Program-made: the position numbers and the translations under genes
Part shown: positions 1-64,000 of the stretch, piece by piece
How positions within the stretch are numbered: the stretch's first letter is position 1
Layout: each line of letters begins with the position of its first letter
The notes under the pieces: generated by a model
Databases searched by the model: none
Seen by the model: only the letters and a program-made list of their open reading frames with translations
What the model was told of the DNA's origin: nothing
From: an uncultured Alphaproteobacteria bacterium
GTDB lineage: Bacteria > Pseudomonadota > Alphaproteobacteria > Rhizobiales > Xanthobacteraceae
Assembly (NCBI GenBank): GCA_963741115.1
Contig: CAVUGR010000008.1
Coordinates: 45,251-109,250 of the forward strand
Direction: 5' to 3'
Length of the DNA: 64,000 nt

Positions 1-1428
1 GCGCGCACCGATCTGCCCGGCAGCGGCGTGATCCGCGCGCTGGTGACGGCCTCGTTTGTGACGCCGCCGTTTCTGGGCGCGATCGCCTGGGAACTGCTGG
101 CGGCGCCCAATAGCGGGCTGCTCAACAAGATTTTCCGCAGCATCACCGGTGCCGAGCAGGACGTGCACCTGTTCAATATCTATACGCTGACCGGCATCGT
201 CTTCGTGATCTCCTGCTACACCTTCCCCTACGTTTTCGTGCTGGTCGCCAATTCGCTCGACCGCACGCCCGGTGAACTGGAGGACGCTTCTTCCATTCTC
301 GGCGGCGGGCGCTGGTACACCGCGCGGCGCGTCACCATTCCGCTGGTGCTGCCGGCCTTGCTCGCGGGCGCGCTGGTCGCCTTCCTGCAGGCGATGACGC
401 TGTTCGGCTCGCCGGCGATTTTGGCGCTGCCGGCCGGTTTCCACACCATGACCACCAAGATCTGGAGTCTGTTCCAGTATCCGCCCAAGCCCGAGCTCGC
501 CGCCGCCGCCGCGCTGCCGCTGCTGGTGCTCACCGTCTTTCTGCTGCGCGCCGAGCACATGATTCTCGGCCGCCGCGGCTATTCGGTGGTCGGCGGCAAA
601 TATGGCGCGCCGCGCCTGATCCCGTTGCACAACTGGCGCTGGCCGGCATTCGCCATTTGCCTGACCGTGCTGCTGATGCCGGTTTTCCTGCCCTATGTCG
701 CGCTGTTCAACGCGGCGTTCTCACCGGTGGCGACCACGTTCCTGACGTTCAAAAATGCGACGATGCACAACATCTACTTCGTCTTGTTCGACCTGTCGGC
801 GGCATCCTTGGCGCTCAAGAACACGGTCATCCTCGGCGGCGCCACCGCCACCATTGGCACCGCGATCGCGCTGGTGATCGCCTATGTCACCGCGCGCCAG
901 GCGGTGCCCGGCCACCGCATCCTCGGCTTTCTCGCCACTGCGCCGATCGCCATTCCCGGCATCGTGCTCGGCGTCGGCCTGTTCCTGAGCTACACGCGGC
1001 CGCCTTTCGTGCTGTACGGCACGCTGTGGATTCTGCTGATCGCCTTCGTGACCATCGCGCTGCCGTCGGCCTATCAGCAATTACAGGCGGCGTTCCGCAC
1101 CATTCACCCGGAACTGGAAGACGCCAGCCGCATTCTCGGCGCCACGCGGCTGCGCTCGCTCTGGCAGATCACTGCGCCGCTCTTGCGCACCGGCGTGATC
1201 GCGACCTGGTGCTTTATCTTCGTCGGCGTGATGCGCGAACTGTCGGCGGCGATCATTCTGTTCACCTCGGAAACCAAGGTTATCTCGGTGCTGATCTACG
1301 ATCTCAACGAGAGCGGCGACCTCGGCGCCATCTCGGTAATCGGCATCGGCATGCTGATCATCACCTTCAGCGTCGTGATCGCGGTCAACCGCATCCCCGG
1401 CTTCGGCAACGTACGGTTCAGAACATAA
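1..1428 (+). CDS. ABC transporter permease, Fe(III)/FbpB-type fused double-domain, 5' partial (reading frame runs off the window start)
   Basis: Open frame from base 1, no upstream stop. Two permease modules, each with an EAA-like loop (ELEDASSILGGGRWYTARRVTIP; ELEDASRILGATRLRSLWQITAP). Multiple TM helices. Stop at 1426-1428 abuts the next ATG. Confidence 0.8.
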   Translation, partial: ARTDLPGSGVIRALVTASFVTPPFLGAIAWELLAAPNSGLLNKIFRSITGAEQDVHLFNIYTLTGIVFVISCYTFPYVFVLVANSLDRTPGELEDASSILGGGRWYTARRVTIPLVLPALLAGALVAFLQAMTLFGSPAILALPAGFHTMTTKIWSLFQYPPKPELAAAAALPLLVLTVFLLRAEHMILGRRGYSVVGGKYGAPRLIPLHNWRWPAFAICLTVLLMPVFLPYVALFNAAFSPVATTFLTFKNATMHNIYFVLFDLSAASLALKNTVILGGATATIGTAIALVIAYVTARQAVPGHRILGFLATAPIAIPGIVLGVGLFLSYTRPPFVLYGTLWILLIAFVTIALPSAYQQLQAAFRTIHPELEDASRILGATRLRSLWQITAPLLRTGVIATWCFIFVGVMRELSAAIILFTSETKVISVLIYDLNESGDLGAISVIGIGMLIITFSVVIAVNRIPGFGNVRFRT

Positions 1429-2802
1429 ATGGACGCCAAGGCCCCCACCACCTCCGTCGCGCAGCACCTCTCCGAGCACATGGTCGCGTTGCGCAGCGAA
1501 ACGCTGCCTCCGGCGGTGCGCGCCAAATGCGAAGATCTGCTGGTGGACGTCGTCGGGCTTTGCGTCACCTCACGCAACGAGGATTACGTCAGAGCCGCGC
1601 TTGCCGGCTGCGACGATGACGGCCCTTGCACCGCGATCGGACATACGCGCACGCTGAGCGCGGCAAGCGCCGCTTTCGTCAACGGCACCGCCTGCCACGG
1701 CGAGGACTTCGACGACACCTTCGAAGGCGGGCCGGTGCATACCGGTGCGGTGATCGTGCCGGCGGTGTTGGCGGCTTGTGAGCGCCACCAGCCTGACGGC
1801 GCCGCGGCGCTTCTGGGCATCGCGGTCGGTGTCGAGACCATGTGCCGTCTGTCGACCGTGGTGCCGAAGGCGGTGCACAAGGCGGGCTTTCATCCGACCG
1901 CGATTTTCGGCGTGATGGGTGCCGCCGCCGGTGTCGGCGCCGCGCTCGGCCTCAATGCGAAACAGCTCGTCGATGCGCTCGGCATCGCCGGCAGTTTTGC
2001 CGGCGGCATCATCGAATATCTGACCGATGGCGCCTGGACCAAGCGGCTGCATCCCGGATGGGCGGCGCAATCCGGCATTCGCGCGGCGCTGCTGGGGCGC
2101 GCCGGCTTCTTCGGGCCGCGCACGGTGTTCGAAGGCGTGCACGGACTTTTTCACGGCTTCGCACACACCACTAAGGGCGACTATGACGCGCTCACCGGCG
2201 ATTTCGGCAGCAAGTTTGTGACCGAGACGCTCGCCTTCAAGCCCTATCCATGCGGCACCATGGCGCATCCTTATATCGACTGCGCCAAGAAGCTGGCGGC
2301 GAAGGGCGTCAGAGCCGCCGACATCAAGGAGATATTCTGCGAAGTCGCCGAAGGCACCGTGCACCGACTGTGGGAGCCGCTCGTCGACAAGCAGCGGCCG
2401 CGCAACGGCTACATGGCGAAATTCTCGACGCCGTATCTGCTGGCGACCGGTTTCGTGCGCGGCGGCGTCGGCTTCGATCATTTCAGCGAGAAGGCCGTCA
2501 ACGATCCGGAAGTGTTGGCGCTGTCGTCGAAAGTGAAATACGTGGTCGATCCGGGTAATCCGTATCCCAATGCCTTCACCGGCCATATCCGCGCCACACT
2601 CAACGACGGGCGCGTGATCGAAGAGCGCCAGCCGCACTTCCGCGGCGGCGTGCACGAGCCGCTGACACGCGCCGACATCGAGGAAAAATTCGTGCTCAAC
2701 GCGCGTCACGGCGGCTGGGACGATGCGCGCAGCGGCGCGGCGCTCAAGCTGCTGGCCAAGCTTTATGGCGGCAAGATCGATTTAAGTAGCTTGCGCGGAT
2801 AG
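1429..2802 (+). CDS. MmgE/PrpD family protein (2-methylcitrate dehydratase / cis-aconitate decarboxylase superfamily)
   Basis: 457-aa intact ORF. ATG immediately follows the permease stop. Sequence is typical of MmgE/PrpD over its full length. Confidence 0.85.
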   Translation: MDAKAPTTSVAQHLSEHMVALRSETLPPAVRAKCEDLLVDVVGLCVTSRNEDYVRAALAGCDDDGPCTAIGHTRTLSAASAAFVNGTACHGEDFDDTFEGGPVHTGAVIVPAVLAACERHQPDGAAALLGIAVGVETMCRLSTVVPKAVHKAGFHPTAIFGVMGAAAGVGAALGLNAKQLVDALGIAGSFAGGIIEYLTDGAWTKRLHPGWAAQSGIRAALLGRAGFFGPRTVFEGVHGLFHGFAHTTKGDYDALTGDFGSKFVTETLAFKPYPCGTMAHPYIDCAKKLAAKGVRAADIKEIFCEVAEGTVHRLWEPLVDKQRPRNGYMAKFSTPYLLATGFVRGGVGFDHFSEKAVNDPEVLALSSKVKYVVDPGNPYPNAFTGHIRATLNDGRVIEERQPHFRGGVHEPLTRADIEEKFVLNARHGGWDDARSGAALKLLAKLYGGKIDLSSLRG

Positions 2803-2809
2803 TTTTGCC

Positions 2810-2894
2810 GTCATGGCCGGGCTTGTCCCGGCCATCCACGTCTTGGCGGCGGAAAAAGAAAGGCGTGAATGCCCGGCACAAGGCCGGGCATGAC
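2810..2894. repeat. REP-like palindromic intergenic element, family A (GTCATGGCCGGGCTTGTCCCGGCCATCCACG ... CGTGAATGCCCGGCACAAGGCCGGGCATGAC)
   Basis: Near-perfect inverted repeat. A second copy with the same arms lies at 5186-5280. Confidence 0.6.
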
Positions 2895-2912
2895 GGAGCA
2901 AAGAGGTCGGCT

Positions 2913-5185: not shown

Positions 5186-5280
5186 CAGCGTCATGCCGGG
5201 CCTTGTGCCGGGCATCCACGTCTTACTTTTTAGAGCCAGGCAAAGCGTGGATGGCCGGGACAAGCCCTGCCATGACAGCG
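5186..5280. repeat. REP-like palindromic intergenic element, family A (second copy)
   Basis: Arms TCATGCCGGGCCTTGTGCCGGGCATCCACG / CGTGGATGGCCGGGACAAGCCCTGCCATGAC. Confidence 0.6.
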
Positions 5281-5281: not shown

Positions 5282-7618
5282 TTATTTCGCCATCCCCTTC
5301 TGACACGCTTCCCACACCTTCGCGGGCGTCGCCGGCATGTCCATGTGATCGGCGGCGCCGTTCGGCACCGCGTGTCCGATCGCGTTCATCAGCGCAGCGA
5401 TCGCGGCGGTGGTGCCGGCCTCGCCGGTGCCCTTGACGCCCAATGGATTGGTGGTGGCCGGAGTGGACAGTACCGCCTCGCGCAATTCCACCGGCATGTC
5501 GTGTGCGCGCGGCATGGCGTAGTCCATGAACGAGCCGGTGAGCAGCTGCCCGCCGTTCGGGTCGTAGACGACGTTCTCCAGGAGCGCCTGGCCGAAACCG
5601 TTGGCCAAGCTGCCGTGCACCTGGCCCTCGACGATCGTGGGGTTGAGCATGTTGCCGCAATCGTCGACCGCGGTGTAGGTCACCACGTCGACCTTGCCGG
5701 TGTCGGGATCGATCTCGACTTCGGCGATGTGCACGCCGTTCGGGAAAGGTCAGCGGCGTCTCGGCCTTTTCCTTGGTGTCGAGGCTTTCCGACATTTCCT
5801 TGGCGCGGCGCGCAGTCTCGAACAGCGAGATGCGGCGGTCGGTGCCGACCACTTCGAAATTTCCGTTTTTGTACTGGATGTCGCTCTCGGATGCTTCCAG
5901 CAGACCGGAGGCGATTTTCTTGCCCTTGGCCAGCATCACTTCGGTGGTGTGCACGATGGCGTGGCCGGCCGCCATCGCCGAGCGCGAGCCGACCGAAGCA
6001 AAGCCGACGATCTCCCGCGACGAGTCGCCGTGCTGGTGCTCGATGGTCTTGCGGTCGATGCCGAGCTGGTCCGACAACAGCCGGCCGAACACGGTGGCAT
6101 GGCTCTGTCCGGTCGATTGGACGTTGAGCGCCAGAATCAACTTGTCGCCGCCGGGAAACACCAGCGAGGCGCTTTCGGTCGGCAGCGCGCCGGCATGTTC
6201 CAGCATGCAGGAAATGCCGATGCCGCGCAGTTTCTTGCGCTTGGCGGATTCGCGTTTGCGCTTGTTGAAATTCTTATAGTCGCTCATCTCCATCGCCTTG
6301 GCGAAGATCGCCGGAAAATCGCCGCTGTCGTAGGTGGTGGTGACCGCGGTCTTGTAGGGCATCGCCGAGGGCGGAATGAGATTCTTGCGGCGCAGCTGCA
6401 CGGTGTCGATGCCGGTGACGCGCGCCGCTTCCTCGACGACCCGGTCGAGCGCGTAATTGGCTTCCGGGCGTCCGGCGCCGCGATAGGGCCCGATCGGCGC
6501 CGTGTTGGTAAATACGCAGCGCGAGGAAAAATCGATCTTCGGAATGCGGTACATCCCGGGCAAGCAGCGCGCGACATTGTTGGTGTTGATGCCGATGCCG
6601 GCCGGTGTGACATAGGCGCCCTGGCCGCACAGGTGTTTCATGCGCAGCGCCAGGAATTTGCCGTTCTCGTCGAGCGCCAGTTCGCTTTCGGTATAGGTGT
6701 CGCGCGCCTGCGTGTCGGTCATGAAGGCTTCCGAGCGCGTCGACATCCAATGCACCGGACGTCGGAGCTTCTTGGCGGCGACCAGCACCGCCAGATATTC
6801 CGGGTAGACCGGGTCTTCATGCCGAAGGCGCCGCCGACATCCTCGGTGATGACACGCAGCTTACTGTTGTCGACGCCAAGGATCGGCGCGGTCTGATTGC
6901 GGATGGTGCCGGCGCTCTGCGAGCAGGCGTGCAGCGTGTAACTTTCGGTCTTGGGATCGTAGGTACCGGTGGCGCCGCGCGTCTCCATCGAGGCAACCAC
7001 CATGCGCTGATTGCGTACGGTGACGCGCGCCACGTGCTTCGCGCTCTTGATGATCGCATCGACCTCGCGCTCGTTGTCCGGGCTGTCGACCATGCCGGGC
7101 CAGTCGATGGCGAGATTGTTCGGTGCTTCCGGGTGCAGTTGCGGCGCGCCGGCTTTCAGCGCCTCGCGCGCATCGATCACCGCCGGCGTATCTTCGTATT
7201 CGACCGCGATCTGGTCGGCTGCGTCCAACGCCTGGCCGAGCGTCTCTGCCACCACCATGGCGACCGCCTCGCCAACATAGAGCACGCGCTCACCGGCAAG
7301 CGTCGGCCGGAACGGCTGGATCAACTCCTTGCCGCCGCGGCCCGGCAGCGGCGGATGGCGGCCCGCGCTTTTCAATCCGGCCGCCTTGATGTCTTCGGCG
7401 GTGAGCACCGCCACCACGCCCTTGGCGCCGCGTGCCTTGGCCGCATCGATCGAGACGATGCGCGCGCTGGCATGCGGCGAGCGCACGAACACGGCGGCGG
7501 CCTGGTTCGGCAGGCGCGGATCGTCGGCATATTTGCCGGCGCCGCGTACCAGGGCGTCGTCCTCCAGGCGCAGTTCGGCTTTGCGGTGGGCGAGGGGCGT
7601 ATTCATGCGGGGTTCCAC
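5282..7618 (-). pseudogene. xanthine dehydrogenase family molybdopterin-binding large subunit (CoxL/aldehyde oxidase-like), frameshifted at least twice
   Basis: One protein is split over three frames: 6719-7618 N-terminus, 5740-6788 middle, 5282-5734 C-terminus. A 1-nt indel lies near 6800 (GMKT|PVYPEYLAVLV) and another near 5745 (LTFP|NGVHIAEVEIDPDTGKV). No adjacent FAD or Fe-S subunit genes. Confidence 0.75.
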
Positions 7619-7668
7619 GTGAAACTTGAGGCCCGTTTATAACGCATAGTTAGCCTTCGGACAGGGGC

Positions 7669-11945: not shown

Positions 11946-13062
11946 CTAGGCCGCCGCCATTACATCGGCGACATCGAGCGGCAGCTTCACCGGCGCCTTG
12001 CGCTTGGCCGACAAATCCAGCGCCTTGGTCAGCATCAGATTACGATGCGCTTCTTCAACCGTCGCCGCCGCCGTCGGCAGGCCCATGGCGACGCGGTTGA
12101 GCCAGCTATCGGTCTCCAGCGCCATCGGCCCGCGCAGTTCGCCGAGCGCCATGTCGCCGGGCGGATAGCTGCCCATGAAATCGACGAGCCGCGTGGCATC
12201 GGGGTTGTAGCCCTCGGACTGTGCCTTCGACACCGCCAGCACGATATCGCGGTGGGTGTCGTCGATGGTCAGCACGCCGGTGGTGCCGACGATGCCGACT
12301 TCGAGCGAGTACACCGCGCCCGGCCAGGTCACCGGCAGCGCCCAGGAAATGTTGAGGTGATAGACCGTGCCGTCGGAAAACATGATCATGCCGGCGGTGG
12401 CATCGATGCCCTGGTAGAGCGGGCCCAGCACCTTGTCGATCGAACGCGCGTAGACTTCGACCGGCGTCTTGCCCTCCAGGCACCACATGCAGATGTCGAG
12501 CGCATGCGTGCCGGAAATCACCATCGGCGAGATCGTCGCCGGATCGTTGGTGCGCTTGTAATTGTCGATCGCCACCAGCCGGTTCATGAACGCGCGCGAG
12601 GTGACCAAGCGTGACATCCCCGAGCGCGCCGGTGCGGCATTTCTCTTTGGCCGCCAGCCAGCGCCGGCGGAATCGTTGCGTATAGCCGACAACCGCGTCG
12701 AGCTTGGCGTCTTTGATCAGCTTCAGCACCTTGGCGGATTCGGCCAGATTGGTCGCGAGCGGCTTCTCGATCAGCATCGGAATGCCGCGCTCGATCGCCG
12801 CCATTATCGGATCGACATGCAAATGCTCGTCGGTCGCGATGATGCAGGCGGTCACTTCCGGGCGCTTGAGCAATTCGACGTGGCTTTGCGTGACGAAGTC
12901 GGCGCTTATTTTCGGGCCGACTTCGCCGGCGCGGTTCGGGTTCTTTTCGGCCAGCCCGATCCACTCCACCGACGGATGGCGCGCCGCCACTTCGCCGCGG
13001 AACAGCCCGACGCGTCCGCCGCCGATGATGGCGAGTCCGACGCCTTTGGCGGTGTTCTTCAT
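11946..13062 (-). pseudogene. Gfo/Idh/MocA family oxidoreductase, one frameshift
   Basis: N-terminus is in ORF 12106-13062 and C-terminus in ORF 11946-12692. The junction (GALGDVTL|VTSRAFMNRLV) is explained by a single inserted T near 12611. Confidence 0.75.
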
Positions 13063-14153
13063 CCTGGATTGGCTCCCGACCGGTTCTGTTCCTTGAATTC
13101 CGCGATGGCCGAAATCGTCTCGTTGCTCAGCGGCAGGTCGACCGGCTCGTTGCGGAACGCCGACAGATCGGCGGCGCTGTAGGTCTCCATCACCCGGCGC
13201 GCGCTTTCCGGCGTGACCATTACCGGCGTGTCGCGGATGCAGGCTTCCAGGAAGTGGATGGTCTCCGGTCCCATGCCGCCGGCGAACACTTCGCCGACCT
13301 GCTCGCCCGGCATGGTCGACATCGGAAACACCTGGCCGTTGCTGACGGTGTTGAGCCAGTTGTCGCGCTGGGTGTCGTCGAGCACCAGCGCGCCTTCGGT
13401 GCCGGTGATCTCGATCCAGGTCGAGCAGTAGTTCGGATAGCTCGGCGGGAAATTCCAGCCGCCGCCGATCATCACCACCACGCCATTGTCCATGGTGACG
13501 GTGGTGAACATCACGTCATGCGAGCCGTTGACCGGCTTCATGTAGCCGTAGGCACCCTGCGAATAGACGCGCACGGGCTTGGCCGGCTCCAGCAGCCAGA
13601 ACACGAAGTCGAGGTCGTGGGTGCTCTCCATCACCACCGGCGAGAGCCGCACGCGGCCGGCGATCTTCTTGCCGAGGCTGCGCGACAGATGGCGGCTGAC
13701 CAGCACCGAGACCATATTGCCGAGCGTGCCGTCGACGATCTTCTTCTTGGCGTAGGCGATCTTGGTGTTGAAGCGCTGCGAATAGCCGATGGTGAATTTG
13801 AGATTGTTCTGTTTGGCGATATGGATCAGCTCGTCGGCTTCCCACAGTTCGAGCGCGATCGGCTTTTCCAGCATCACGTTCTTGCCGGACTTCAGACAGT
13901 CCTTGGCGATCGGATAATGGTTGGTCTCCGGCGTGGTCGAAATGTAGACCACCGAGATATTCGGATTGTCGATGATGTCCTGGTATTTCAGCGTCGCGGT
14001 GGCCGGCTTGTAGAGGGCCTTCACCTCGGCCAGCCGGTCGGGCTTGATTTCGCACAGGTGCAGCTTGTCGACCAGCGCCGTGCGCGCCAACGTTTCCGCG
14101 CGCGTGCCGCCAACCCACCCGACCCCGATCACCGCCGCTTCAACTGTCTGCAC
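13059..14153 (-). CDS. Gfo/Idh/MocA family oxidoreductase
   Basis: 364-aa intact ORF. N-terminal Rossmann fold (IGVGWVG). 4-nt overlap with the downstream paralog. Confidence 0.8.
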   Translation of the reverse strand: MQTVEAAVIGVGWVGGTRAETLARTALVDKLHLCEIKPDRLAEVKALYKPATATLKYQDIIDNPNISVVYISTTPETNHYPIAKDCLKSGKNVMLEKPIALELWEADELIHIAKQNNLKFTIGYSQRFNTKIAYAKKKIVDGTLGNMVSVLVSRHLSRSLGKKIAGRVRLSPVVMESTHDLDFVFWLLEPAKPVRVYSQGAYGYMKPVNGSHDVMFTTVTMDNGVVVMIGGGWNFPPSYPNYCSTWIEITGTEGALVLDDTQRDNWLNTVSNGQVFPMSTMPGEQVGEVFAGGMGPETIHFLEACIRDTPVMVTPESARRVMETYSAADLSAFRNEPVDLPLSNETISAIAEFKEQNRSGANPG

Positions 14154-19153: not shown

Positions 19154-19164
19154 GGTGCTCTCCT

Positions 19165-19632
19165 TCAACCCATCATCGTGGCGGCGCGCTTGACCGCCTT
19201 GAGAATGCTGATGTGCGTGCCGCAACGGCACTTCAGTCCGGAGAGCGCGTCCTTGATCTCGGCTTCGCTCGGGTTCTTCTTGTCGCGCAGGAAGGCGGCG
19301 GCGGTCATCAGCCAGCCATTGATGCAGTAGCCGCATTGCGGCACCTGCTCCTCGACGTAGGCGGTCTGGATCGGGTGCGGCTTTTCCGGCGTGCCGAGAC
19401 CGGCCAACGTCACCACCTTGGCATTGCCGACCATGGAGAGCGGCGTGATGCAGGAGCGGGCGGGCTGGCCGTCGATATGCACGGTGCAGGCGCCGCATTG
19501 CGCGAGCCCGCAGCCGAAGTGCGGATTGTTGAGGCCGATATCGTTGCGCAAGGCATAGAGCAACGGCATGTCCGGGTCGGCATCGACGGTATGGGTTTTG
19601 CCGTTGACGTTGAGCGTGAAGCGTTGGGTCAT
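19165..19632 (-). CDS. (2Fe-2S)-binding small subunit (IorA-like)
   Basis: Both 2Fe-2S motifs (CGLAQCGACTV ... CGYCINGW ... CRCGTH). Intact 155-aa ORF. Confidence 0.85.
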   Translation of the reverse strand: MTQRFTLNVNGKTHTVDADPDMPLLYALRNDIGLNNPHFGCGLAQCGACTVHIDGQPARSCITPLSMVGNAKVVTLAGLGTPEKPHPIQTAYVEEQVPQCGYCINGWLMTAAAFLRDKKNPSEAEIKDALSGLKCRCGTHISILKAVKRAATMMG

Positions 19633-19836
19633 GGCGAGCAGCCTCCCTGAAATTCGGACCGCGGCTTACGGCCTGCGTCCCGTCGCGGACTTCCGCGAGC
19701 GCGTCGTTGACCGACGCTTGCAGACCAAAGGCTAGTCCTCGCCGCTGGCCAGGGGAACGCCTTTTGGGATAAAAATGGTGTTACCATGCAGGGAATAGAC
19801 GCCTTAAGGCGCGGCACTCGGAGGAGGAACAAAATT

Positions 19837-35888: not shown

Positions 35889-35984
35889 GGGTGCTCTCCC
35901 TGATCGGTATTGGCTGGCCGGCCTTATAGCCGGGGGCATGGCCGGATTATAGGCCTTGGTCAAACGCGGCGGCAGTCCCGATCG

Positions 35985-37017: not shown

Positions 37018-37061
37018 AGCTCGCATTCCTGAACGGACGGGGCAACGGCTCTTGCCAATAT

Positions 37062-37105
37062 GTGCATATGCACGTATTAATGTCAAGAGAAACGTGCATA
37101 TGCAC
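37062..37105. promoter_or_regulatory. two copies of the perfect 12-bp palindrome GTGCATATGCAC (37062-37073 and 37094-37105; 32 bp centre to centre) in the marR-MATE divergent intergenic region; candidate MarR operators
   Basis: Seen directly. The first copy extends to the 16-bp palindrome ACGTGCATATGCACGT. Confidence 0.5.
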
Positions 37106-37128
37106 CTACTTGCGACGGAGCGCTTGCC

Positions 37129-38514: not shown

Positions 38515-38523
38515 GGTGACCGC

Positions 38524-40164: not shown

Positions 40165-40260
40165 GAGGCGTAGCTCCCTTAAACGCTGGCGCGAAATATG
40201 CTTCGCTTTGCAGCACCTTCTTTGGCGGGCATAATACGCATCCGTCTGGGAGGAAAAACA

Positions 40261-44005: not shown

Positions 44006-44098
44006 TGGCATTCGCTCCTAAACCGCCGCTTTTTAAGGAATTTCGTGGCTTAACCACGGCCTGCCCGGCAAAGGGCGCGGCGCTTGTGGCGTTGAACT

Positions 44099-47000: not shown

Positions 47001-47146
47001 GGCGGTGCGCAAGGCGCCGCGCGATGCGCTGATCGTCGCCGACGGCACCTCGTGCCGGCATCAGATTCACGACGGCAGCGGGAGGGCAGCCGCCCACGTA
47101 GCGACCGTGCTGGCGATGAGCGTTGCGGCGGCATCGGGAAGGCTGA
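44099..47146 (+). pseudogene. FAD-binding and (Fe-S)-binding domain-containing oxidoreductase (GlcD-like FAD domain + 4Fe-4S/CCG domains; YdiJ-like), 2-3 frameshifts, 3' end approximate
   Basis: About 720 aa in a continuous frame from 44099 (FAD-binding PCMH domain; 4Fe-4S CxxCxxCxxxCP). The frame is lost near 46265 and regained near 46385 (VVLFADTFNRYFERE ... CCGMAGSFGY ... DGTSCRHQI). No in-frame stop before the next gene, which implies a further shift near 47110-47146. Confidence 0.75.
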
Positions 47147-47200
47147 TAGTCTCGTCGCGAATAAAGCGCGCCCAAGACGCGCCGATGCCGGGAGGACACG

Positions 47201-48239
47201 ATGCCGCTGCCTTTGCTGCCGACCTCGCTGGTCGGCTCCTACGCGCAGCCGGATTGGCTGATCGACCGCAAGAAGCTCGCCGGCCGCTTTCCGCCGCGCG
47301 TGCGCGCCAAGGAGCTCTGGCGGGTCGCGCCGGAATTCCTCGACCAGGCGCAGGACGACGCCACGCTTGCTGGCCATCCGCGATCAGGAGCGCGCCGGGC
47401 TCGACATCATCACCGACGGCGAGATGCGGCGCGAAAGCTATTCCAACCGCTTCGCCACCGCGCTCGAAGGCGTCGACATCGACAATCCCGGCACGGCGCT
47501 CGATCGCTCCGGCCATCCCAATCCGGTGCCGCGCGTCACCGGCAAGATGCGCCGCAAGCATCCGGTCGAAGTGCGCGACCTCGAATTCCTGCGCGCCAAT
47601 ACCGACCGCATGATCAAGATCACGGTGCCCGGCCCGTTCACCATGTCGCAGCAGGCGCAGAACGATTTCTACAAGGACGAGCAGGAGATGGCGCTCGATT
47701 ATGCCGCGGCGGTGAACGCCGAGATCAAGGATCTGTTCGCGGCCGGCGCCGACGTGGTGCAGATCGACGAGCCTTATATGCAGGCGCGGCCCGGAGAAGG
47801 CGCGCCAGTATCGGCCTCAAGGCGCTGAATGCCGCGCTCGACGGCGTCAAAGGCACGACCGCGGTGCATATCTGCTTCGGCTATGCCGCGATCATCCATG
47901 TGCGGCCGGAGGGCTATTCGTTCCTGCCCGAGTTTGCCAATTCGCAGGTCGCAGCAGGTCTCGATCGAGACCGCGCAATCCAAGCTCGATTGCGCGGTGC
48001 TGGAGAAATTGCCGGGCAAGACCATCATTCTCGGTGTGCTCGATCTGTCCGACATGGCGATCGAGACGCCTGAGATGGTCGCCGCGCGCATCCGCCGCGC
48101 GCTGCCGCACGTGCCGGCGGAGCGCATCGTCGTCGCGCCCGATTGCGGGCTGAAATATCTGCCGCGCGAAGTTGCCTATGGGAAGATGTGCGCCATGGTC
48201 GCGGGCGCAAAAATCGTGCGCGCCGAGCTTTCCAAATGA
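47201..48239 (+). pseudogene. MetE C-terminal-domain-like protein, paralog B, about 4 frameshifts
   Basis: From the ATG at 47201 (MPLPLLPTSLVGSYAQPDWL). Fragments 47367-47828 and 47829-48239 are in other frames. About 75% identical to the intact tandem paralog C over aligned pieces. Confidence 0.75.
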
Positions 48240-49264
48240 AATTGTTTCCTACTTCTCTCGTCGGCTCCTATCCACAGCCCGAATGGCTGATCGACCGCGC
48301 GCGGTTGTCGAAGATGGTACCGCGCGTGCGCATGCAGGATCTTTGGCTGGGCGATCCACAGCACCTAGAAGCCAAGCAGGATGAGGCGACGCTGGAAGCG
48401 ATCCGCGACCAGGAGCGCGCCGGGCTCGACATCATCACCGACGGCGAGCAGCGGCGCGAAAGCTATTCCAATCGCTTTGCCACCGCCCTCGAAGGTGTCG
48501 ACACCGATAATCCCGGTACGACGATCAACCGCAGCGGCAAGCCGATCCCGGTGCCGCGCGTCACCGGAAAAATCCGCCGCAAATATCCGGTGGAAATTCG
48601 CGACATGCGGTTTCTGCGCGCCAATACTAAGAAGCCGGTGAAGATGACGGTGCCCGGCCCCTTTACCATGTCGAAGCAGGCGCAGAACGAATTCTACAAA
48701 AGCGAAGAAGAGATGGCGCTCGATTATGCCGCCGCGGTCAATGCCGAGATCAAGGACCTGTTCGCAGCCGGCGCCGACATCGTTCAGATCGACGAACCGT
48801 GGATGCAGCAACATCCCGACAAAGCGCGCCAATACGGTCTAAAGGCGCTCGACCGTGCGCTCGACGGCGTCACCGGCACGGTCGCGGTGCATCTATGCTT
48901 CGGCTATGCCGCGGTGGTGCACGAGAAGCCAGCCGGTTACTCGTTCCTGGGCGAGCTTGAGGGGTCGAAAGCCGCGCAAGTGTCGATCGAGGCGGCGCAG
49001 CCCAAGCTCGATCTTGGCGTTCTGGAGAAGCTGCCGGGCAAGACCATCGTCCTCGGCGTCATCGATCTGTCCGACATGACGGTGGAGACGCCGGAGATTG
49101 TCGCCGCGCGCATTCGACGCGCGCTGCCGCACGCCCCGGCCGAACGCATCGTGGTGGCGCCCGACTGCGGCATGAAATATCTGAGCCGCGATGTGGCGTT
49201 CGGAAAACTGCAGGCGATGGTGGCGGGCGCGAATATCGTGCGCGCCGAAATCGGAAAAAAGTGA
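48236..49264 (+). CDS. MetE C-terminal-domain-like protein (methionine synthase II-like, about 340 aa), paralog C, intact
   Basis: The ATG at 48236 overlaps the paralog B stop (ATGA). Continuous 342-aa frame. Zn-ligand context typical of the MetE/UroD-like fold (HLCFGY ... APDCGMKY). Confidence 0.8.
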   Translation: MKLFPTSLVGSYPQPEWLIDRARLSKMVPRVRMQDLWLGDPQHLEAKQDEATLEAIRDQERAGLDIITDGEQRRESYSNRFATALEGVDTDNPGTTINRSGKPIPVPRVTGKIRRKYPVEIRDMRFLRANTKKPVKMTVPGPFTMSKQAQNEFYKSEEEMALDYAAAVNAEIKDLFAAGADIVQIDEPWMQQHPDKARQYGLKALDRALDGVTGTVAVHLCFGYAAVVHEKPAGYSFLGELEGSKAAQVSIEAAQPKLDLGVLEKLPGKTIVLGVIDLSDMTVETPEIVAARIRRALPHAPAERIVVAPDCGMKYLSRDVAFGKLQAMVAGANIVRAEIGKK

Positions 49265-49300
49265 CCCGCCCGGATGGGGACTAACCGGGCGGGTCGTTCG
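49264..49300. terminator. inverted repeat ACCCGCCCGG-N12-CCGGGCGGGT between convergent genes; candidate bidirectional terminator
   Basis: 10-bp perfect stem immediately after the metE-like C stop. The T-tract is weak. Confidence 0.35.
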
Positions 49301-49345
49301 GATCGGCGCTGGGATGGACGGGGGTGGCGCCGATCACGATTGAGA

Positions 49346-49549
49346 TCAGTAGGGGACGACGTCGCAAGTCTTGATGGTGAGAACATTGCCAGCATTGTCG
49401 GCGCTATCGGTGAAGCGGCATTCGTCGTAGCCGGCATTGACCCGAAAGGCCGGATCGGAATAGCCGCTTGAGACGGCACCGGCGTTCAGCGTGGCGGCCA
49501 AGGTGACGGCGAGCGTCAGCGCGGCGGCGATGGTGTTGGATCGGGTCAC
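49346..49549 (-). CDS. hypothetical small secreted protein (67 aa, signal peptide, 2 Cys)
   Basis: MTRSNTIAAALTLAVTLAATLNAGA signal-like N-terminus. No homolog recognised. Confidence 0.35.
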   Translation of the reverse strand: MTRSNTIAAALTLAVTLAATLNAGAVSSGYSDPAFRVNAGYDECRFTDSADNAGNVLTIKTCDVVPY

Positions 49550-49674: not shown

Positions 49675-50692
49675 ATGATGCGATTAGCGGCGATTTTGTT
49701 GGCTTTGGCAGCCGGTCTGGCGCCGGCGCAAGCCCAGCAGCTCGACAAGGTCCGCTTCGGCACCAATTGGGTGGCGGAGGCCGAGCACGGCGGCTTCTAT
49801 CAGGCGCTCGCCGACGGCACCTACAAGAAATACGGCCTCGACGTCACCATCGTGCCTGGCGGTCCAAACGTGAACAACCGCATCCTGCTCCCCGTCGGCA
49901 AGCTCGACTTCTTCATGAGCGCCAATTCGCTGCAGAGTTTCGACGCGGTCGCCAACAACATCCCGACCGTCGCGGTGGCCGCGATCTTCCAGAAAGACCC
50001 GCAGGTGCTGATCGCGCATCCGGGCAAGGCCGAGATATTCGCGGACCTGAAGAAGCTGACGCTGTTCGTCTCCAAGGAAGGCATGGCCAGCTACTTCCAG
50101 TGGCTGAAATCGGATTACGGCTTCGACGAGTCCAAGGTGAAGCCCTATACCTTCAATGCGCAGCCGTTTCTCGCGGACAAGAATTCCGCCATGCAGGGCT
50201 ATGTCACCTCCGAGCCATACGCGATCGAGCAGCAGGGCAAGTTCAAGCCGGTCGTGTTCCTGCTCGCCGATCACGGCTTCAACGCCTATTCGACGCTGAT
50301 CGAGACGAGGCGCGATCTGGTGGAGAAGAAGTCCGACCTAGTGCAGCGCTTCGTCGATGCCTCGGCCATCGGCTGGTATCACTATCTCTATGGCGACAAC
50401 GCCGCGGGAAATGCGTTGATCAAGAAGCAGAATCCGGAAATGACCGATGCGCTGCTGACCTATTCCATCGCCATGATGAGGGCCTACAACATTCTCGAGT
50501 TCCTTCGACACGCGCACGGGCGGCATCGGCGCCATGAATGACGCGCTGTGGAAGAGCTTCTTCGATAAGATGGTGCGCGCCGGCGTGATCAAGGGTTCTC
50601 TCGATTACCGGCGCGCCTATACGGAGCAATTCGTCAACAAGGGCGTCGGGGTCGAGTTGAGACCGACGTACCTTGACCAGAAGATCCGGTAA
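49675..50692 (+). pseudogene. ABC transporter substrate-binding protein (NMT1/THI5-like, NitT/TauT family), one frameshift near 50495
   Basis: Signal peptide. The frame is intact to about 50495. After one indel the C-terminus ...FDTRTGGIGAMNDALWKSFFDKMVRAGVIKGSLDYRRAYTEQFVNKGVGVELRPTYLDQKIR reads to the stop at 50692. Confidence 0.7.
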
Positions 50693-52342: not shown

Positions 52343-53673
52343 TCACATTACGTAATGTATCGCCGCGCCGAGCGCGGCCATTGCCAAAACGACTTCGATC
52401 AGGCTGCGGTGCAGCCCGAAGGCTAGCACCGCGGCGATAGCCGCCAGCGCCGCCGCACGGATATCGAGCGCCAGCGGATCGAAGGCGTACCAGCGCAGCG
52501 GGCCGGCGTGCATTTCGGTGACTTTGCCGAACAGTACATGCAGCGCGAACCAGACCGACAGATTGAGGATGACGCCGACCACCGCCGCGGTGATGGCGGC
52601 GAGCGCGCCCGACAGATTTCGGTTGGCGCGCAGCCGCTCAACGAAAGGCGCGCCGGCAAATATCCACAGCATCGAGGGAACGAATGTCACCCATGTCGTC
52701 ATCGCGGCGCCGAGCACGCCGGCGGTGATGGGAGAAAACGGCGGCGCCTCGCGAAACGCCGCGAGGAAGCCGACGAATTGTGTGACCAGAATAAGCGGTC
52801 CCGGCGTGGTTTCGGCCAAGCCCAAGCCATCGACCATCTCGGGCGCGCTCATCCAGCCGTAGGTCTCCACTGCCTGCTGCGCCATATAGGCGAGCAGCGC
52901 ATAGGCACCGCCGAAACTCACCACCGCGAGTTTGGAAAAAAGAATCCGATGCTTGTAATGACATGGTGCGGGCCGAGAATCAGTGCCGCAAGCAAGACCG
53001 GGGTCCACCATGCCAGCAATCCCACAAGCGACGCCACGACGAATTGCCGCCAGCGGCCTTTCGCCGGTGGTGGCACGCTTTCCATTTTGGCGGCGATGCC
53101 GAGCCGCTCGGGCGAGCGGCGCGCGACCAAATATCCGATGAGCGCGGCGGCTGCGACGATCAAGGGAAATGGCAGTGCCAGAAAGAAGATGCCAACAAAG
53201 GCCGCCGCCGCCAAGGCGAGCAGCACCGAAGTCTTGAGCGCGCGCTTGCCGATGCGGATGAGCGCCTCGATCACGATCACCAGCACGGCAGCCTTGATGC
53301 CGAATAGAATTCCGTCCACGACCGAGATGCCGCGCCCGAGCGCATAGAGCAGGCTCAATCCCAGCATCACGAAGGCGCCCGGCAGCACGAACAGGATGCC
53401 GGCCGTCAGGCCGCCGCGCACGCCGTGCAGCAGCCAGCCCAGATAAGTGGCGAGTTTTTGCGCCTCCGGCCCGGGCAGCAGCATGCAGAAATTGAGTGCG
53501 TGCAGGAAACGCTGCTCTTCCACCCACTTCTTCTCGTCGACCACGACGCGATGCATCAATGCGATCTGCGCCGCCGGCCCGCCGAAATTGATGCAGCCGA
53601 TCCCCAGCCAGACCTTGAAGGCTTCGCCGAAGCTCGGAGGCGGGCTGGCTTCAGTTGGTGCCATGGTGGTCAT
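52343..53673 (-). pseudogene. chrA: chromate transporter ChrA (CHR family, two-domain), one frameshift near 52960
   Basis: The N-terminal CHR half ([23 protein letters not shown]...) is in ORF 52918-53724. The C-terminal half ([15 protein letters not shown]...) is in ORF 52343-53527. The ATG at 53673 overlaps the upstream gene stop (ATGA). Confidence 0.75.
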
Positions 53674-54494
53674 GCCGCCTTTGCTGGCCAGTTGTGCCGT
53701 TCGTCGGCGGCAAAGCGCAGCCACGCGAACAAACCATCGTAGACCAAGAAACCGCGTTTGAGCAGCCCGTGATCATCATCGCCGGCCAGCGCTGACAGGC
53801 CGAGCGAGATCGCGTGCAGCCCAGCCGCCTCCGGTGCGATGTCGGGCCGCGCGGTGTCGGCGCCGCGCACGATCAGGGCAAGGCGCGCCAGAGAGGGTTC
53901 GCCTTCCAGTCCGAACAGCTTGAGCATGGTGTCGAAGGTGCAGCGCTCGCCATCATGGCTCAATTCGATGTCCTTGATATCGAACGGGACGCCGCCGCTC
54001 TCGCGCGCGACATTCACCACCTGATCCGGGTCGACGAACAGGATGCGGGCCTGCGGATCGAGAAAACGATGCACCAGCCAGGGACAGGCGATGCGGTCGA
54101 TCTTCGGCCGCCGCCGCGTCACCCATACGCCCGGGCGCTTCGGCGTGAGCCGGTCGAGCTCAGGCTTGGCAACCAGCGGCAAGCCGGCTTTCGCCCAGGC
54201 CTCGTAGCCGCCTTCCAGCACGCGTGCATCGAAGCCGTCGGCGCGCAATTGCGCCACCGTGGTCTGGCTCATTTCGTGACCGGCCTTGCAGGCGATGGCG
54301 ACCGACCGCGCGCGATCGAACTCGGCCGACCAGGCTTGCGCCTTGCTCGCATCGCGCCAAGTCGCCGCCGGCAACAGGTGTGGCGAGGCCTCGAAGGCTT
54401 CGCGCCGCCGCACGTCGATGATTTGCGGCGCATCGCGCGTCGCGATCGCATTCCAGAGATCTTTCGGTGAGACTGAGTAGGCCGGAGACAGCAT
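53670..54494 (-). CDS. rhodanese-domain / chromate-resistance (Chrome_Resist, ChrB C-terminal-like) fusion protein
   Basis: N-terminal rhodanese-like region (IIDVRRREAFEASPHLLPAATW ... CKAGHEMSQTTV), then KIDRIACPWLVHRFLDPQARILFVD, typical of the Chrome_Resist domain. Translationally coupled to chrA. Confidence 0.65.
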   Translation of the reverse strand: MLSPAYSVSPKDLWNAIATRDAPQIIDVRRREAFEASPHLLPAATWRDASKAQAWSAEFDRARSVAIACKAGHEMSQTTVAQLRADGFDARVLEGGYEAWAKAGLPLVAKPELDRLTPKRPGVWVTRRRPKIDRIACPWLVHRFLDPQARILFVDPDQVVNVARESGGVPFDIKDIELSHDGERCTFDTMLKLFGLEGEPSLARLALIVRGADTARPDIAPEAAGLHAISLGLSALAGDDDHGLLKRGFLVYDGLFAWLRFAADERHNWPAKAA

Positions 54495-54606
54495 AGGTCC
54501 CCTCCGTGAACGAAGGAGACGGTGCTTGGGCTCCGTAGCCTAAAGGGGCGACCGCCGCAGGCCCCACCAAAAAAATCTAGCTCAGCGCATCATCGCGGGC
54601 AAGCCG

Positions 54607-55347
54607 TCAGCGAAAGAATGCCGGCACCACCAGCGACAATCCGGAAATCAGCAACAAGAAGAGAATGGCCTTGCGAAAGGCCGCGTCGTCGAGTTTTCCG
54701 TAGAGTTTGATACCGACCCACAAACCCAACAGCAGCGCCGGCAAGCCCATGAGGAAAAGTTTGAGGATGTCGGCGTTGAACAGATGGCCCGCGGCCGCGA
54801 AAGTCAGCGTGGCCATGGTCATGGTCATGAACAGCACGGGCTGAAAAATCGCGCGCTGCACGTCTTTCGGGCCGCCGCCGAGTTGCACCCAGATCGTGCT
54901 GATGACTCCGCCAAGACCGGTGAGACCACCGAGCAGGCCGTTCAGGACGCCGATGCCGGTATCGGCCGCCGGATTGGATCTGATGGGGGTGAAGGTCGGC
55001 CGCGCGAGGTTGTAGGTGCTGTACGCGATCAGCAATACGCCGACGCCGATGCGCAGGTACGCGGGATTGAGAAAGGTCACCAGATAGGCGCCAAGCGGGA
55101 CGCCAACGGCTGCGCCGATGACGAACGGCAGAATCCGCCGCCACTGCAGCGCATGGCGGACTTTCCAGACGCCATAGGCTTGATTGACCACCCCGTAGGC
55201 GGCGATCAGCATCGCCGTCTGCAAAGGCGTGATGATGTGCAACCAGACGCCCGACACAACAAGTCCGGCTGCGAAGCCGGTCAGGCCGCTGGTGAAACCG
55301 CCGAGAAATGTCGCGATAAGGAAAAGTGCGATTGTCATGCCATCCAT
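54607..55347 (-). CDS. sulfite exporter TauE/SafE family permease, copy 1
   Basis: ATG at 55347 (MDGMTIALF...). 4+4 TM repeat architecture. Confidence 0.8.
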   Translation of the reverse strand: MDGMTIALFLIATFLGGFTSGLTGFAAGLVVSGVWLHIITPLQTAMLIAAYGVVNQAYGVWKVRHALQWRRILPFVIGAAVGVPLGAYLVTFLNPAYLRIGVGVLLIAYSTYNLARPTFTPIRSNPAADTGIGVLNGLLGGLTGLGGVISTIWVQLGGGPKDVQRAIFQPVLFMTMTMATLTFAAAGHLFNADILKLFLMGLPALLLGLWVGIKLYGKLDDAAFRKAILFLLLISGLSLVVPAFFR

Positions 55348-55592
55348 AGAAGTCGCTCCCGGAGCGAAAGGGCGCAGCGCTTGGATGGATGTCATCTGAC
55401 GGGGAGGCGGCATGGTCCCCGGGTTATGTCGAATTGTATTTCTGAGATCGCTCAGCCCGCAAACAGCACAGGTCCCCTCCGTGAACGAAGGAGACGGTGC
55501 TTGGGCTCGCAAGCCTTGGAGAAATGGGGCGACCGCCGCAGACCCCACTCGAAAACTGTAGCGCAACTGCGGATTTGCAGCAAGCCGTTCGA

Positions 55593-56333
55593 TCATCGCA
55601 ACAGCGACCACGGCACGATCAGCGTCAGCCCAGACAACAGCAGGAGCAGGAGAATGATCTTTCGGAATGCAGCTTCGTCGAGATGCCCATAAAGCCTCAG
55701 CCCGAGCCAAAGTCCGGCCGCGAGCGGCGGCAGCCCATAAAGATACAATTTAGCGAGATCGGCCGTGACCGCGCCGGCAAACCCCAGTGAAATCGCCGTC
55801 ATCACGAAGGCTGCCAGGATGACCGGTTGAAAGATCGCGCGTTGGGTATCCCTCGGCCAGCCACGCAACTGGCACCAGATTGTGATGACTGGGCCCGCCA
55901 GCCCGGTCATTCCGCCGAGCAACCCGTTGAGTACGCCGACGCCGGTCTCGACGGCGAAGCCGGCGTGCATCGGCTTGAGATGAGGGCGCGCCAGCGAATA
56001 GGCGCTGTAGACAACGAGCAGGACCCCTACGCCAACGCGAAGAAAACCGGGATTGATATAAGTAAGCAGCGCGGCGCCGATTGGAATGCCGATTGCGCCG
56101 CCGATAATGAAAGGCGCGACCTTACGCCACGCCAACGCATGCCGCAGTTTCCAGATGCCATAGGCTTGCACCAGCAGGCCGTAACCGACGATCAAGGCCG
56201 CGGTCTGAATCGGCGTGAGGATGTGCAACCAGATGCCAGACACCACCAGGCCCATGGCGAAGCCGGCCAGGCCCGTGACGATGCCGCCGATGAAAACAGT
56301 AAAAAGGAAAATTCCGAGAATCGTGCCATCCAT
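55593..56333 (-). CDS. sulfite exporter TauE/SafE family permease, copy 2 (tandem paralog)
   Basis: ATG at 56333 (MDGTILGIF...). Aligned directly, about 65-70% identical to copy 1. Confidence 0.8.
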   Translation of the reverse strand: MDGTILGIFLFTVFIGGIVTGLAGFAMGLVVSGIWLHILTPIQTAALIVGYGLLVQAYGIWKLRHALAWRKVAPFIIGGAIGIPIGAALLTYINPGFLRVGVGVLLVVYSAYSLARPHLKPMHAGFAVETGVGVLNGLLGGMTGLAGPVITIWCQLRGWPRDTQRAIFQPVILAAFVMTAISLGFAGAVTADLAKLYLYGLPPLAAGLWLGLRLYGHLDEAAFRKIILLLLLLSGLTLIVPWSLLR

Positions 56334-56475
56334 GGGTCGCTCCCAACATGAAGTGACCAGCGCTTGGATGCGATTCTCTGGATGGATGGCTGCCATCTCC
56401 AGGGGAGGCTGCTATGTCCCCTGCCAGCGCTGTATAGCAATCCACGACTAATCGAACCAGCCAGATTTATCCGCT

Positions 56476-61088: not shown

Positions 61089-61101
61089 AGGAAGCGCTTA
61101 A

Positions 61102-62412: not shown

Positions 62413-62426
62413 CAGGAGAGGCGAAG

Positions 62427-63403
62427 ATGGCGGGCGAAAAGCCGGACGTATTGCTGGTTGGAAGCAGGAAGCCCGTTATCGTCGGCGGCCTCGAATCCGA
62501 AGGTCAATCTGCATTACCTGCTCGAGGCCAAGGATCAGGATGCCTTCATAAAATCAATCGGCGACAAAATCCGCGCAATCGCGGTCGCTTATACGCCGAA
62601 CAAGGTCGATGCCGCTTTCATGCAGAAATTCCCCAAGCTCGAGCAGATTTCGAGCTTCGGCGTCGGCTATGACCATATCGACGCTAAATGGGCGGGCGCG
62701 CATGGCATCATCGTCACCAACACGCCGGAAGTGCTCAACGAGGAAGTCGCCGACACCGCGCTCGGACTTCTGCTCTGCACGGTGCGGGAGTTCCCGCAAT
62801 CCGACCGCTATGTGCGCGCCGGTAAATGGCCGCAAGCAGCAATATCCGCTCACCAAGGCGACGCTGCGCAACCGCACCGTCGGCATGGTCGGCATGGGCC
62901 GCATCGGCAAGGCGATCGCGCGCCGTCTCGAGGCGTTCGGCGTGCCGGTGGTCTATCACAGCCGCAATCCGCAAGCCGGCGTCGAGTACAAGTACTATCC
63001 CAAGCTGGTCGACATGGCGCGCGATGTCGACACGCTGATGGTGATCGTGCCGGGCGGGCCGGCGACGGCGAACATGATCAATGCCGAGGTGCTCAAGGCG
63101 CTCGGCCCGGACGGCATTCTCATCAACATGGCGCGCGGTTCGGTGGTCGATGAGCCGGCATTGATCGCGGCGCTTAAAGACCGCACGATCTATTCCGCCG
63201 GCCTCGATGTGTTCGCCAAGGAACCGCAGGTGCCGAAAGAACTTATCGAGATGGATCACGTCGTGCTATTCCCGCATCTCGGCTCTTCGACCGAAGTGAC
63301 GCGGGCTGCGATGGATCAACTCGTGGTCGACAATATTCTGGCATGGGTGGCCGGCAAGGCGCCCCTGACACCGGTGTCGGAGACGCCGCCGAAACGTGCA
63401 TAG
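62427..63403 (+). pseudogene. D-isomer-specific 2-hydroxyacid dehydrogenase (glyoxylate/hydroxypyruvate reductase-like), 2 frameshifts
   Basis: From the ATG at 62427. Frame changes near 62500 and 62840. GMVGMGRIGKAIARRL NAD-binding motif and the catalytic R/E/H region are present. Confidence 0.75.
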
Positions 63404-63438
63404 GCCGATGTAATCAATGCTTGTCACGACAGGTTCGA

Positions 63439-64000
63439 CATGATGCGCTTTTTGATTTTTCTTGCCGCCGTACTTTGCCTCGCCGCGGCGGCGCAATCCG
63501 CCACCACGCTCGGCGAATCCGCCAAGGCGTTGATCGGCACCTGGGAATTCTCCAACGCCGACCGCGACAAAATCTGCACCGCCACGTTCAAGGATGACCC
63601 GGTCAGGGTCGGCTTCAAGGTCGAGTTCGATGCCAGTTGCGCAGAACTATTTCCGATTGTGAAAGAGGTCGCCGGCTGGAATTTCCCCGAGGGAGATATG
63701 CTGCGGCTGGTCGACGGGCAGGGCAGAGCGCTGGTCGAATTCAGCGAGGTGGAGGACGGCATCTATGAGGCGCCGACCCCCGGGATCGGCGTCTTGTTCC
63801 TGCAAAGCCCCGCCGACGCCGCTCCGCCGCCGAAGTCGCCGGAAGAGGTAGCCGGGACTTGGGCGATCACGCGCGGGGCCGGCGCGCCGGTATGTACGCT
63901 CACTCTGGCGAACACGGTCTTGCGCGACGCCTTTGTGTTGACGGTGAAGCCGGGCTGCGACCCCGCGATTGTGCGGATCGGCTTCAATCAATGGCGCATG
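63439..64000 (+). CDS. secreted protein with two tandem Inh/Omp19-like (protease-inhibitor fold) domains, 3' partial (runs off the window end)
   Basis: Signal peptide (MMRFLIFLAAVLCLAAAAQSA). The motif GTWEFSNADRDKICTATF ... C repeats at GTWAITRGAGAPVCTLTL ... C. Confidence 0.5.

Follow-up and report, generated by a model that had tools for sequence, protein, structure and literature searches.

Clustered single-base frameshifts in a 64-kb contig region of a Pseudolabrys-like alphaproteobacterium are very probably consensus errors

We analysed a 64-kb stretch of contig CAVUGR010000008.1 (positions 45,251 to 109,250, hereafter the window), in which approximately 76 frame-breaking insertions and deletions (indels) interrupt 22 of the ~58 genes (38%). 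The frameshifts are very probably technical consensus errors that lie in poorly covered or unpolished patches of the assembly, and not part of the organism's DNA. Three kinds of evidence carry this reading: the indels are free of accompanying substitutions, single-base repair restores the reading frames, and the orthologs in related genomes are intact. An excess of insertions points the same way. The same preference, for indel errors of an unpolished or low-coverage assembly, had been expressed in a first-pass annotation made from the sequence alone, and the present data support it.

The window has a G+C content of 64% and a gene set typical of a soil alphaproteobacterium. The contig belongs to an uncultured Pseudolabrys-like alphaproteobacterium of the Hyphomicrobiales. 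The nearest public relatives are also uncultured Pseudolabrys-like Hyphomicrobiales, with ~82-92% protein identity and ~90% DNA identity, so that the nearest comparisons are cross-species and none is same-species. For example, the protein of the clean alpha/beta hydrolase gene is ~82% identical to its relatives among species-representative genomes and, in the best case, 92% identical to L161, a 5-kb metagenome contig from ENA. Two proteins from clean genes had no exact match among the sequence records searched. Evidently the contig derives from a lineage of soil metagenomes to which many others are closely related.

Detection and number of the frameshifts

A codon-usage Viterbi segmentation was trained on long clean open reading frames (ORFs). 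It found frame switches crowded into a few regions, and the translations stitched from its segments were good proteins. Reference ORFs were extracted from 80 syntenic loci around the hydrolase gene and from 80 around the ABC permease gene. They were compared with the window by a protein-to-DNA dynamic programme permitting +1 and -1 shifts. Positions of the events came from MAFFT alignments of the DNA with as many as 20 orthologs and from a pairwise alignment with L161. The frameshift-aware alignment, the MAFFT alignments and the L161 alignment agree on the events. Some reference ORFs ran from stop to stop and therefore had N-terminal extensions; frameshifts called there, for instance at 14170 and at 29500-29600, were considered unreliable and left out. 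The CoxL-like gene (two frameshifts) and the 2-hydroxyacid dehydrogenase gene (one) have no orthologs in the comparison, and their frameshifts are based on full-length Pfam matches across the junctions.

Ortholog alignment typed 57 insertions and 10 deletions; 6 events in a MarR-family regulator gene and 3 untyped events bring the total to ~76. Two frameshifts each were found in the substrate-binding protein (SBP) gene at 19786-20830 and in the HIBADH-like, creatinase-like, MaoC, FAD/FeS oxidase and CoxL-like genes, and one each in nine other genes. The first-pass annotation had counted more than 45 frameshifts and had described about half of the genes as broken. Single-nucleotide frameshifts are indeed abundant, and each of the minimum counts that it gave for individual genes was reached or exceeded in the frameshift-aware and DNA ortholog alignments. 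Its total was nevertheless an undercount, and the share of broken genes, though large, is smaller than one half. Among the regions that it had called clean, the hydrolase gene, metE-like C and the interval 22.6-29.4 kb held up against the orthologs. The interval 53.7-62.4 kb was checked against orthologs in part of 53.7-58.5 kb, and 58.5-62.4 kb was seen only as intact ORFs of normal length.

The MarR gene had been overlooked in the first-pass annotation. It diverges from the MATE gene, and its ~6 frameshifts hide it from both ORF and codon-usage scans. It was recognised when three orthologs were aligned to the window with frameshifts allowed (78% identity for that of L040) and by DNA alignment, and the ortholog of L035 matches the Pfam family MarR (PF01047). 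The hand-stitched translation of the window's own gene gave no Pfam match. The segment formed by the MarR, MATE and MaoC genes is an accessory island, since few of the loci from the 80 relatives contain orthologs of it.

In the creatinase-like gene, a -1 and a +1 event separated by 36 nt compensate each other; the ORF remains open, with 12 codons garbled. Intact-looking ORFs can therefore conceal paired errors. Detection of such pairs covered the genes with orthologs; the genes at 1-12 kb and 58.5-64 kb fall outside this scope.

Condition of the broken genes

Single-base repair gave one open frame with high G+C at third codon positions (GC3) in all 19 repaired genes. The check was made in the high-GC3 frame, as open but wrong frames are common at 64% GC. 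After repair, one internal stop was present in ~7,900 codons, a TAG in the MATE gene, and 18 of the 19 genes had none. The repaired ligase, MATE, metE-like, IorB-like and MaoC proteins gave the expected Pfam matches, at full length. The ligase frame was open from end to end, with full-length matches to AMP-binding and AMP-binding_C. The stitched proteins were 85-96% identical to their orthologs, as were those of the clean neighbours. The ortholog alignments and the repaired frames thus agree with the earlier observation that the translations between the breaks are undamaged.

Together, the five genes with the most breaks contain 38 frameshifts. At columns invariant among 20 orthologs, window-private substitutions in these genes numbered 21 of 3500 (0.60%), compared with 84 of 5576 (1.5%) in clean genes. 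Counting substitutions against indels in ortholog alignments had been proposed as a check on gene decay, and this count revealed no excess of substitutions in the broken genes. The nucleotide identity to L161 per 500 nt was 0.85-0.91 inside the most heavily affected region (block C, below) and 0.81-0.92 outside it. Nine genes were also followed in the loci of 81 relatives, in which at most 36 candidate frameshifts occurred in 636 kb; in the window, the broken members of this set contain 34 frameshifts in ~10.3 kb. These data suggest that the broken genes are almost certainly not decaying and are intact in the organism.

In some relatives that are long-read metagenome bins, the ortholog of the FAD/FeS oxidase also shows candidate frameshifts (six in L054 and three in L005). 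These may be assembly errors of their own or alignment artefacts in a variable linker.

Regional blocks of frameshifts

The events are far from uniformly distributed (variance/mean 4.2 in 1-kb bins, p = 3e-26), as had been noticed earlier. The first-pass annotation described a density that follows gene boundaries and considered that such gene-wise clustering would also fit recent gene-specific inactivation. Neither point is borne out. The events fall instead into four regional blocks at 17.9-18.6, 20.5-21.8, 36.7-41.7 and 46.3-48.0 kb (A to D), with sizes from 0.7 to 5 kb and at least four intragenic edges. The clustering is region-wise: block borders fall within genes, and a block can extend over genes of both strands.

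Both edges of block A lie inside the IorB gene. The six events are confined to 719 of the 2325 nt (P = 0.013), and beyond the block the gene is clean over 1029 nt on the 3' side (P = 2e-4) and 576 nt on the 5' side (P = 8e-3) at the local rate. Block B starts ~750 nt into the SBP gene, spans the ATPase gene and ends ~50 nt into the permease gene. Block D starts ~2.2 kb into the FAD/FeS oxidase gene, of which the first 2.17 kb are clean, and runs on into metE-like B. Block C has a homogeneous density across its five genes on both strands (chi-square p = 0.80). The contrast between the ligase and hydrolase genes is real, the probability of no event in 810 nt at the block C rate being ~1e-3. Block C may end anywhere up to 359 nt past 41745, and its coincidence with the ligase-hydrolase border is therefore uninformative.

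Inside the blocks, spurious bases occur about once per 120-280 nt, and A, B and C are near-identical at one per 120-155 nt. Outside them, 13 events are dispersed over ~55 kb, and event-free stretches of 5-10 kb adjoin the blocks. The G+C content is 0.658 in the blocks and 0.639 elsewhere, and homopolymer runs are fewer in the blocks. Because the GC excess is slight and runs are fewer, neither GC nor homopolymer content explains the placement of the blocks.

Nature of the indels and their sequence context

The 67 events typed by alignment are 57 insertions (55 of one base and 2 of two bases) and 10 one-base deletions. With the MarR gene included, insertions and deletions number ~60 and 13 (4.6:1, binomial p = 2e-8). 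The inserted bases (G22, C18, A10, T5) match the genome composition. By codon phase, the insertion slots are distributed 22/21/12, which is uniform (p = 0.19).

The indels had earlier been described as often lying in short G/C runs. This is at chance level: 43.6% of the one-base insertions are homopolymer-compatible, compared with 47.8% of simulated random insertions. None of the 55 produced a run of four or more, though the window has 351 such runs. Homopolymer slippage and the homopolymer-type errors of 454, Ion Torrent, Nanopore R9 or polished PacBio sequencing were rejected for this lack of homopolymer concentration.

The insertion sites show a context bias. When sites are oriented so that the inserted base reads C, 23 of 40 have a G before it (simulations, 33% +/- 8%). 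Of the 55 insertions, 20 have CGCA/TGCG no more than 6 nt away (7.2 expected), and 8 have TCGCA/TGCGA at this distance (0.7 expected); none of the 400 random-insertion simulations reached either value. In seven of the eight TCGCA/TGCGA cases, the inserted base is part of the 5-mer. The bias fits k-mer-dependent base-calling or consensus bias, and argues against purely random noise.

Origin of the frameshifts

The best explanation is consensus error. The sequence appears to be in two quality states, with long stretches almost free of indels and four patches that have probably kept the error rate of a raw assembly. The patches would have had low consensus depth, or would have gone through polishing or hybrid correction without usable reads, and the rest would have been corrected. 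The errors are mostly single bases called in excess at ordinary sites outside homopolymers, and substitutions are very scarce; the 13 scattered singletons are probably residual errors of this type as well. Blocks A, B and C have almost equal densities and adjoin event-free stretches of 5-10 kb, which looks like two states and not a gradient and would favour incomplete polishing or gap-filling.

Errors of this type have precedents. Watson and Warr reportedly described in 2019 how erroneous indels in assemblies of long reads fragment genes. Indel errors in both long-read and hybrid assemblies fragment genes (PMC12007338; PMC8574707), and low-coverage metagenome bins require short-read polishing (PMC9262707). 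The window resembles the long-read, hybrid and low-coverage assemblies of Kastor (PMC12007338), ARAMIS (PMC8574707) and Sereika et al. 2022 (PMC9262707) in having single-base indels, often several per gene. Restorable frames, the absence of substitution damage and intact orthologs are also shared, and persistence at low coverage probably is too. However, published errors are centred on homopolymers and rich in deletions at high GC, whereas insertions prevail here and sharp blocks stand between error-free stretches. More than 70% of residual PacBio errors are in homopolymers (PMC8574707), Nanopore errors are described as 'indels in homopolymers' (PMC9262707), and in high-GC genomes the residual consensus errors are mostly G/C deletions (PMC8574707; PMC9262707). 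As the signature is unlike the usual homopolymer indels or G/C deletions, no platform is named. Platform and software cannot be read from the sequence, and the published profiles disagree with one another and with this pattern.

Several points weigh against a technical origin. The artefact was inferred from the sequence and not observed in reads, coverage or assembly metadata. No sequence property accounts for the locations of the blocks. The dominance of insertions without homopolymer enrichment is not a textbook signature of PacBio or Nanopore errors, and the k-mer bias at the insertion sites is weak and without explanation. Finally, the repaired MATE frame contains an in-frame TAG at 37421-37423, where the orthologs carry TCC or CAC; this codon could reflect either an erroneous substitution or a single true nonsense mutation.

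A special case of technical error is the collapse of strains. Reads of closely related strains would have been merged, clusters of variants would have misaligned the reads, and extra bases would have been kept. The mechanism is documented in the PacBio assembly of Trypanosoma brucei Lister 427, in which collapsed alleles and nearby variants led to read misalignment, indel errors and a very uneven distribution of variants (PMC8445201). As is very probably the case in the window, those apparent frameshifts exist in no real molecule, and both sets are unevenly spread; indels make up 98% of the error-type variants there (PMC8445201). A soil lineage that has numerous close relatives would be a suitable source, and the patchiness and the missing homopolymer link would both be accounted for. 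However, T. brucei is a diploid eukaryote for which variant calls were available, whereas a mixture is conjectural here and is not favoured by codon phase: the insertion slots are not concentrated by third codon positions, and 21 of 55 lie in the 1|2 slot. The 43.6% of insertions that match a neighbouring base also fit random insertion better than allele doubling (~28%, our own estimate). Doubling of single-nucleotide polymorphisms at synonymous sites in a mixed-strain consensus found no support in codon phase or neighbour identity. On balance, we consider strain collapse an unlikely source of the errors.

The insertions could also be real and very recent. In such an 'indel shower', a localised burst of +1 insertions would have arisen, for example, by error-prone repair synthesis across tracts of 1-5 kb. 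The tract-like blocks, their uniform density irrespective of strand and gene, and the near absence of substitutions would fit this. The preference for G before an inserted C and for TCGCA/TGCGA resembles a mutational signature. This bias would also be expected of a real signature, and a small probability was therefore kept for real insertions. Were they real, which is highly improbable, the window would hold four tracts with ~1% single-base insertions, a G[C] and TCGCA/TGCGA preference and no substitutions. However, k-mer-dependent base-calling or consensus error would give the same pattern, and 22 genes would have been lost at once, including conserved metabolic genes that are intact in all relatives. 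We know of no bacterial process, and of no precedent, that gives ~1% single-base insertions at non-repeat sites without substitutions. We give such a burst very little credence.

It is equally hard to believe that the broken genes are genuine pseudogenes, with indels fixed in the genome by gene decay or by recent gene-specific inactivation. The indels are present in the sequence and strongly clustered, the MATE gene has its one in-frame stop, and the MarR-MATE-MaoC segment is accessory and found in few relatives. However, decay should leave other traces. In bacteria, indels are about a tenth of spontaneous point mutations, and well over 100 extra substitutions would be expected from this ratio; the 38 frameshifts are accompanied by 21 private substitutions at the 3500 invariant sites, a rate below that of the clean genes. 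Natural bacterial indels are biased towards deletions, and Mira, Ochman and Moran are said to have reported this leaning in 2001; the bias in the window is opposite. Block edges inside genes and blocks that cross strands show that the damage is not delimited by genes, 18 of the 19 repaired genes have no internal stop, and the orthologs are intact in the 81 relatives. Pseudogene-rich reductive genomes, such as those of Mycobacterium leprae and Sodalis, accumulate stops, missense changes and a deletion bias, with damage gene by gene. The window shares with them a large proportion of frameshifted genes, but it has no missense excess and no deletion bias, and its damage is not distributed per gene.

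Two further candidates were rejected. Programmed frameshifting, transcriptional slippage and phase-variable loci also change the frame by one base, but each such gene has one site, which is either a simple-sequence tract or a slippery heptamer. In the window a gene can have as many as 14 sites, and these coincide neither with runs of four or more nor with repeat tracts. Cross-polishing between metE-like B and C, as proposed in the first-pass annotation, is contradicted by their low DNA identity (77.7%) and by the four changes in B, which are single extra bases missing from 20 orthologs and do not copy C.

Features of the window

The coordinates of the blocks, genes and other features are collected in Table 1.

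Table 1. Frameshift blocks, genes and other features of the 64-kb window (positions in nt; +1, +2 and -1 denote inserted or deleted bases)
Feature	Position	Strand	Observation
Block A	17895-18614		6 indels in 720 nt, all within IorB-like gene: 17895 (+2), 17950, 17993, 18063, 18614 (+1), 18457 (-1)
Block B	20535-21776		8 indels: SBP gene 20535, 20689; ABC ATPase five; permease 21776
Block C	36708-41745		42-43 indels in 5.04 kb, ~1 per 120 nt; MarR (-), MATE (+), MaoC (+), metE-like A (-), ligase (+)
Block D	46270-47951		6 insertions: FAD/FeS oxidase 46270, 46380; metE-like B 47372, 47790, 47810, 47951
CoxL/xanthine-dehydrogenase-like large subunit gene	5285-7636	-	2 isolated frameshifts near 5746 and 6811 (Viterbi); Pfam MoCoBD_1 and MoCoBD_2 full-length across both junctions
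Gfo/Idh/MocA-type oxidoreductase gene	11964-13143	-	Isolated +1 at 12609
IorB-like gene	16866-19190	-	6 frameshifts, block A
SBP gene	19786-20830		2 indels: 20535, 20689
ABC ATPase gene	20947-21725		5 indels: 21131 (+2), 21246, 21382, 21514 (-1), 21642 (-1)
Permease gene	21725-22553		1 indel: 21776
3-hydroxyisobutyrate-dehydrogenase-like (HIBADH) gene	29573-30547	+	30095 (+1), 30451 (-1)
Gene	30884-31664	+	Isolated +1 at 31328
TPR-repeat gene	32747-34103	+	Isolated +1 at 33762
Small membrane-protein gene	34144-34568	-	Isolated +1 at 34413
Creatinase/aminopeptidase-like gene	34587-35900	-	Compensating pair: 35071 (+1), 35035 (-1)
MarR-family regulator gene	36578-37076	-	~6 frameshifts: 36708, 36751, 36814, 36849, 36921, 36998
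MATE efflux gene	37093-38508	+	10 insertions and 1 deletion typed, 11 in all; the full number may be 13; repaired protein matches MatE PF01554 twice
MaoC-like dehydratase gene	38539-38982	+	38812 (+1), 38877 (-1)
metE-like A (Meth_synt_2 domain)	38993-40164	-	10 indels: 9 insertions, 1 deletion
Aryl/acyl-CoA ligase (AMP-binding) gene	40249-41877	+	13-14 indels: 12-13 insertions, 1 deletion at 40707
Alpha/beta hydrolase gene	41890-42699	+	Indel-free; right-hand limit of block C
Class-V aminotransferase gene	42796-44017	-	Isolated +1 at 43255
FAD/FeS oxidase gene	44099-47142		2 insertions: 46270, 46380
metE-like B	47189-48239	+	4 insertions: 47372, 47790, 47810, 47951
metE-like C	48221-49264	+	Clean; tandem paralog of B, 77.7% nt identity
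ABC substrate-binding protein gene	49684-50668	+	Isolated +1 at 50499
Chromate-transporter-like gene	52343-53679	-	Isolated -1 at 52946
D-2-hydroxyacid dehydrogenase gene	62485-63394	+	Isolated frameshift near 62820 (Viterbi); Pfam 2-Hacid_dh_C 1-178 of 178 across junction
Context-bias insertion sites, examples	37228, 39470, 41254, 41443, 46270, 46380, 47951
chrB-b RNA motifs (Rfam)	55374-55421, 56357-56422	-, -	51.5 and 40 bits; gathering score 36.5
TauE-like permease paralogs	54479-55387, 55454-56370		Tandem; 67.5% nt identity
Rhizobiales-2 sRNA (Rfam), borderline match	49263-49362	-	42.8 bits; gathering score 40
Inverted repeat	2807-2895, 5189-5279		~91 nt, 86% identical; in two intergenic spacers

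Within 10 kb there are three short MetE-like genes (~345-390 aa), which contain only the Meth_synt_2 catalytic domain; two of these form a tandem. The trio adjoins the aryl-CoA ligase and FAD/FeS oxidase genes, and the group may be a clade-conserved gene cluster for methyl transfer or demethylation. The borderline match to the Rhizobiales-2 sRNA is in the spacer past metE-like C. Each of the two chrB-b motifs is located upstream of one of the tandem TauE-like permease paralogs. The inverted repeat is probably a dispersed intergenic repeat element. L161 has an 87-nt insertion between metE-like A and the ligase gene, which may resemble this repeat.

Significance

Automatic annotation of this assembly would label ~22 genes as pseudogenes or split ORFs and would miss the MarR regulator entirely. 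At least one ORF with 12 garbled codons (34587-35900) would, in addition, pass as 'intact'. The error signature is not of the homopolymer type, and homopolymer-aware correction would therefore not remove the errors. A patchy, insertion-biased, non-homopolymer and k-mer-biased error mode is of modest technical interest for the curation of metagenome-assembled genomes. For the organism itself, the frameshift pattern is almost certainly not a biological feature. Genome reduction, or a loss of aromatic-acid, methyltransferase-like and efflux functions, would be wrongly inferred from this assembly, and comparisons of gene content based on it would be equally wrong.

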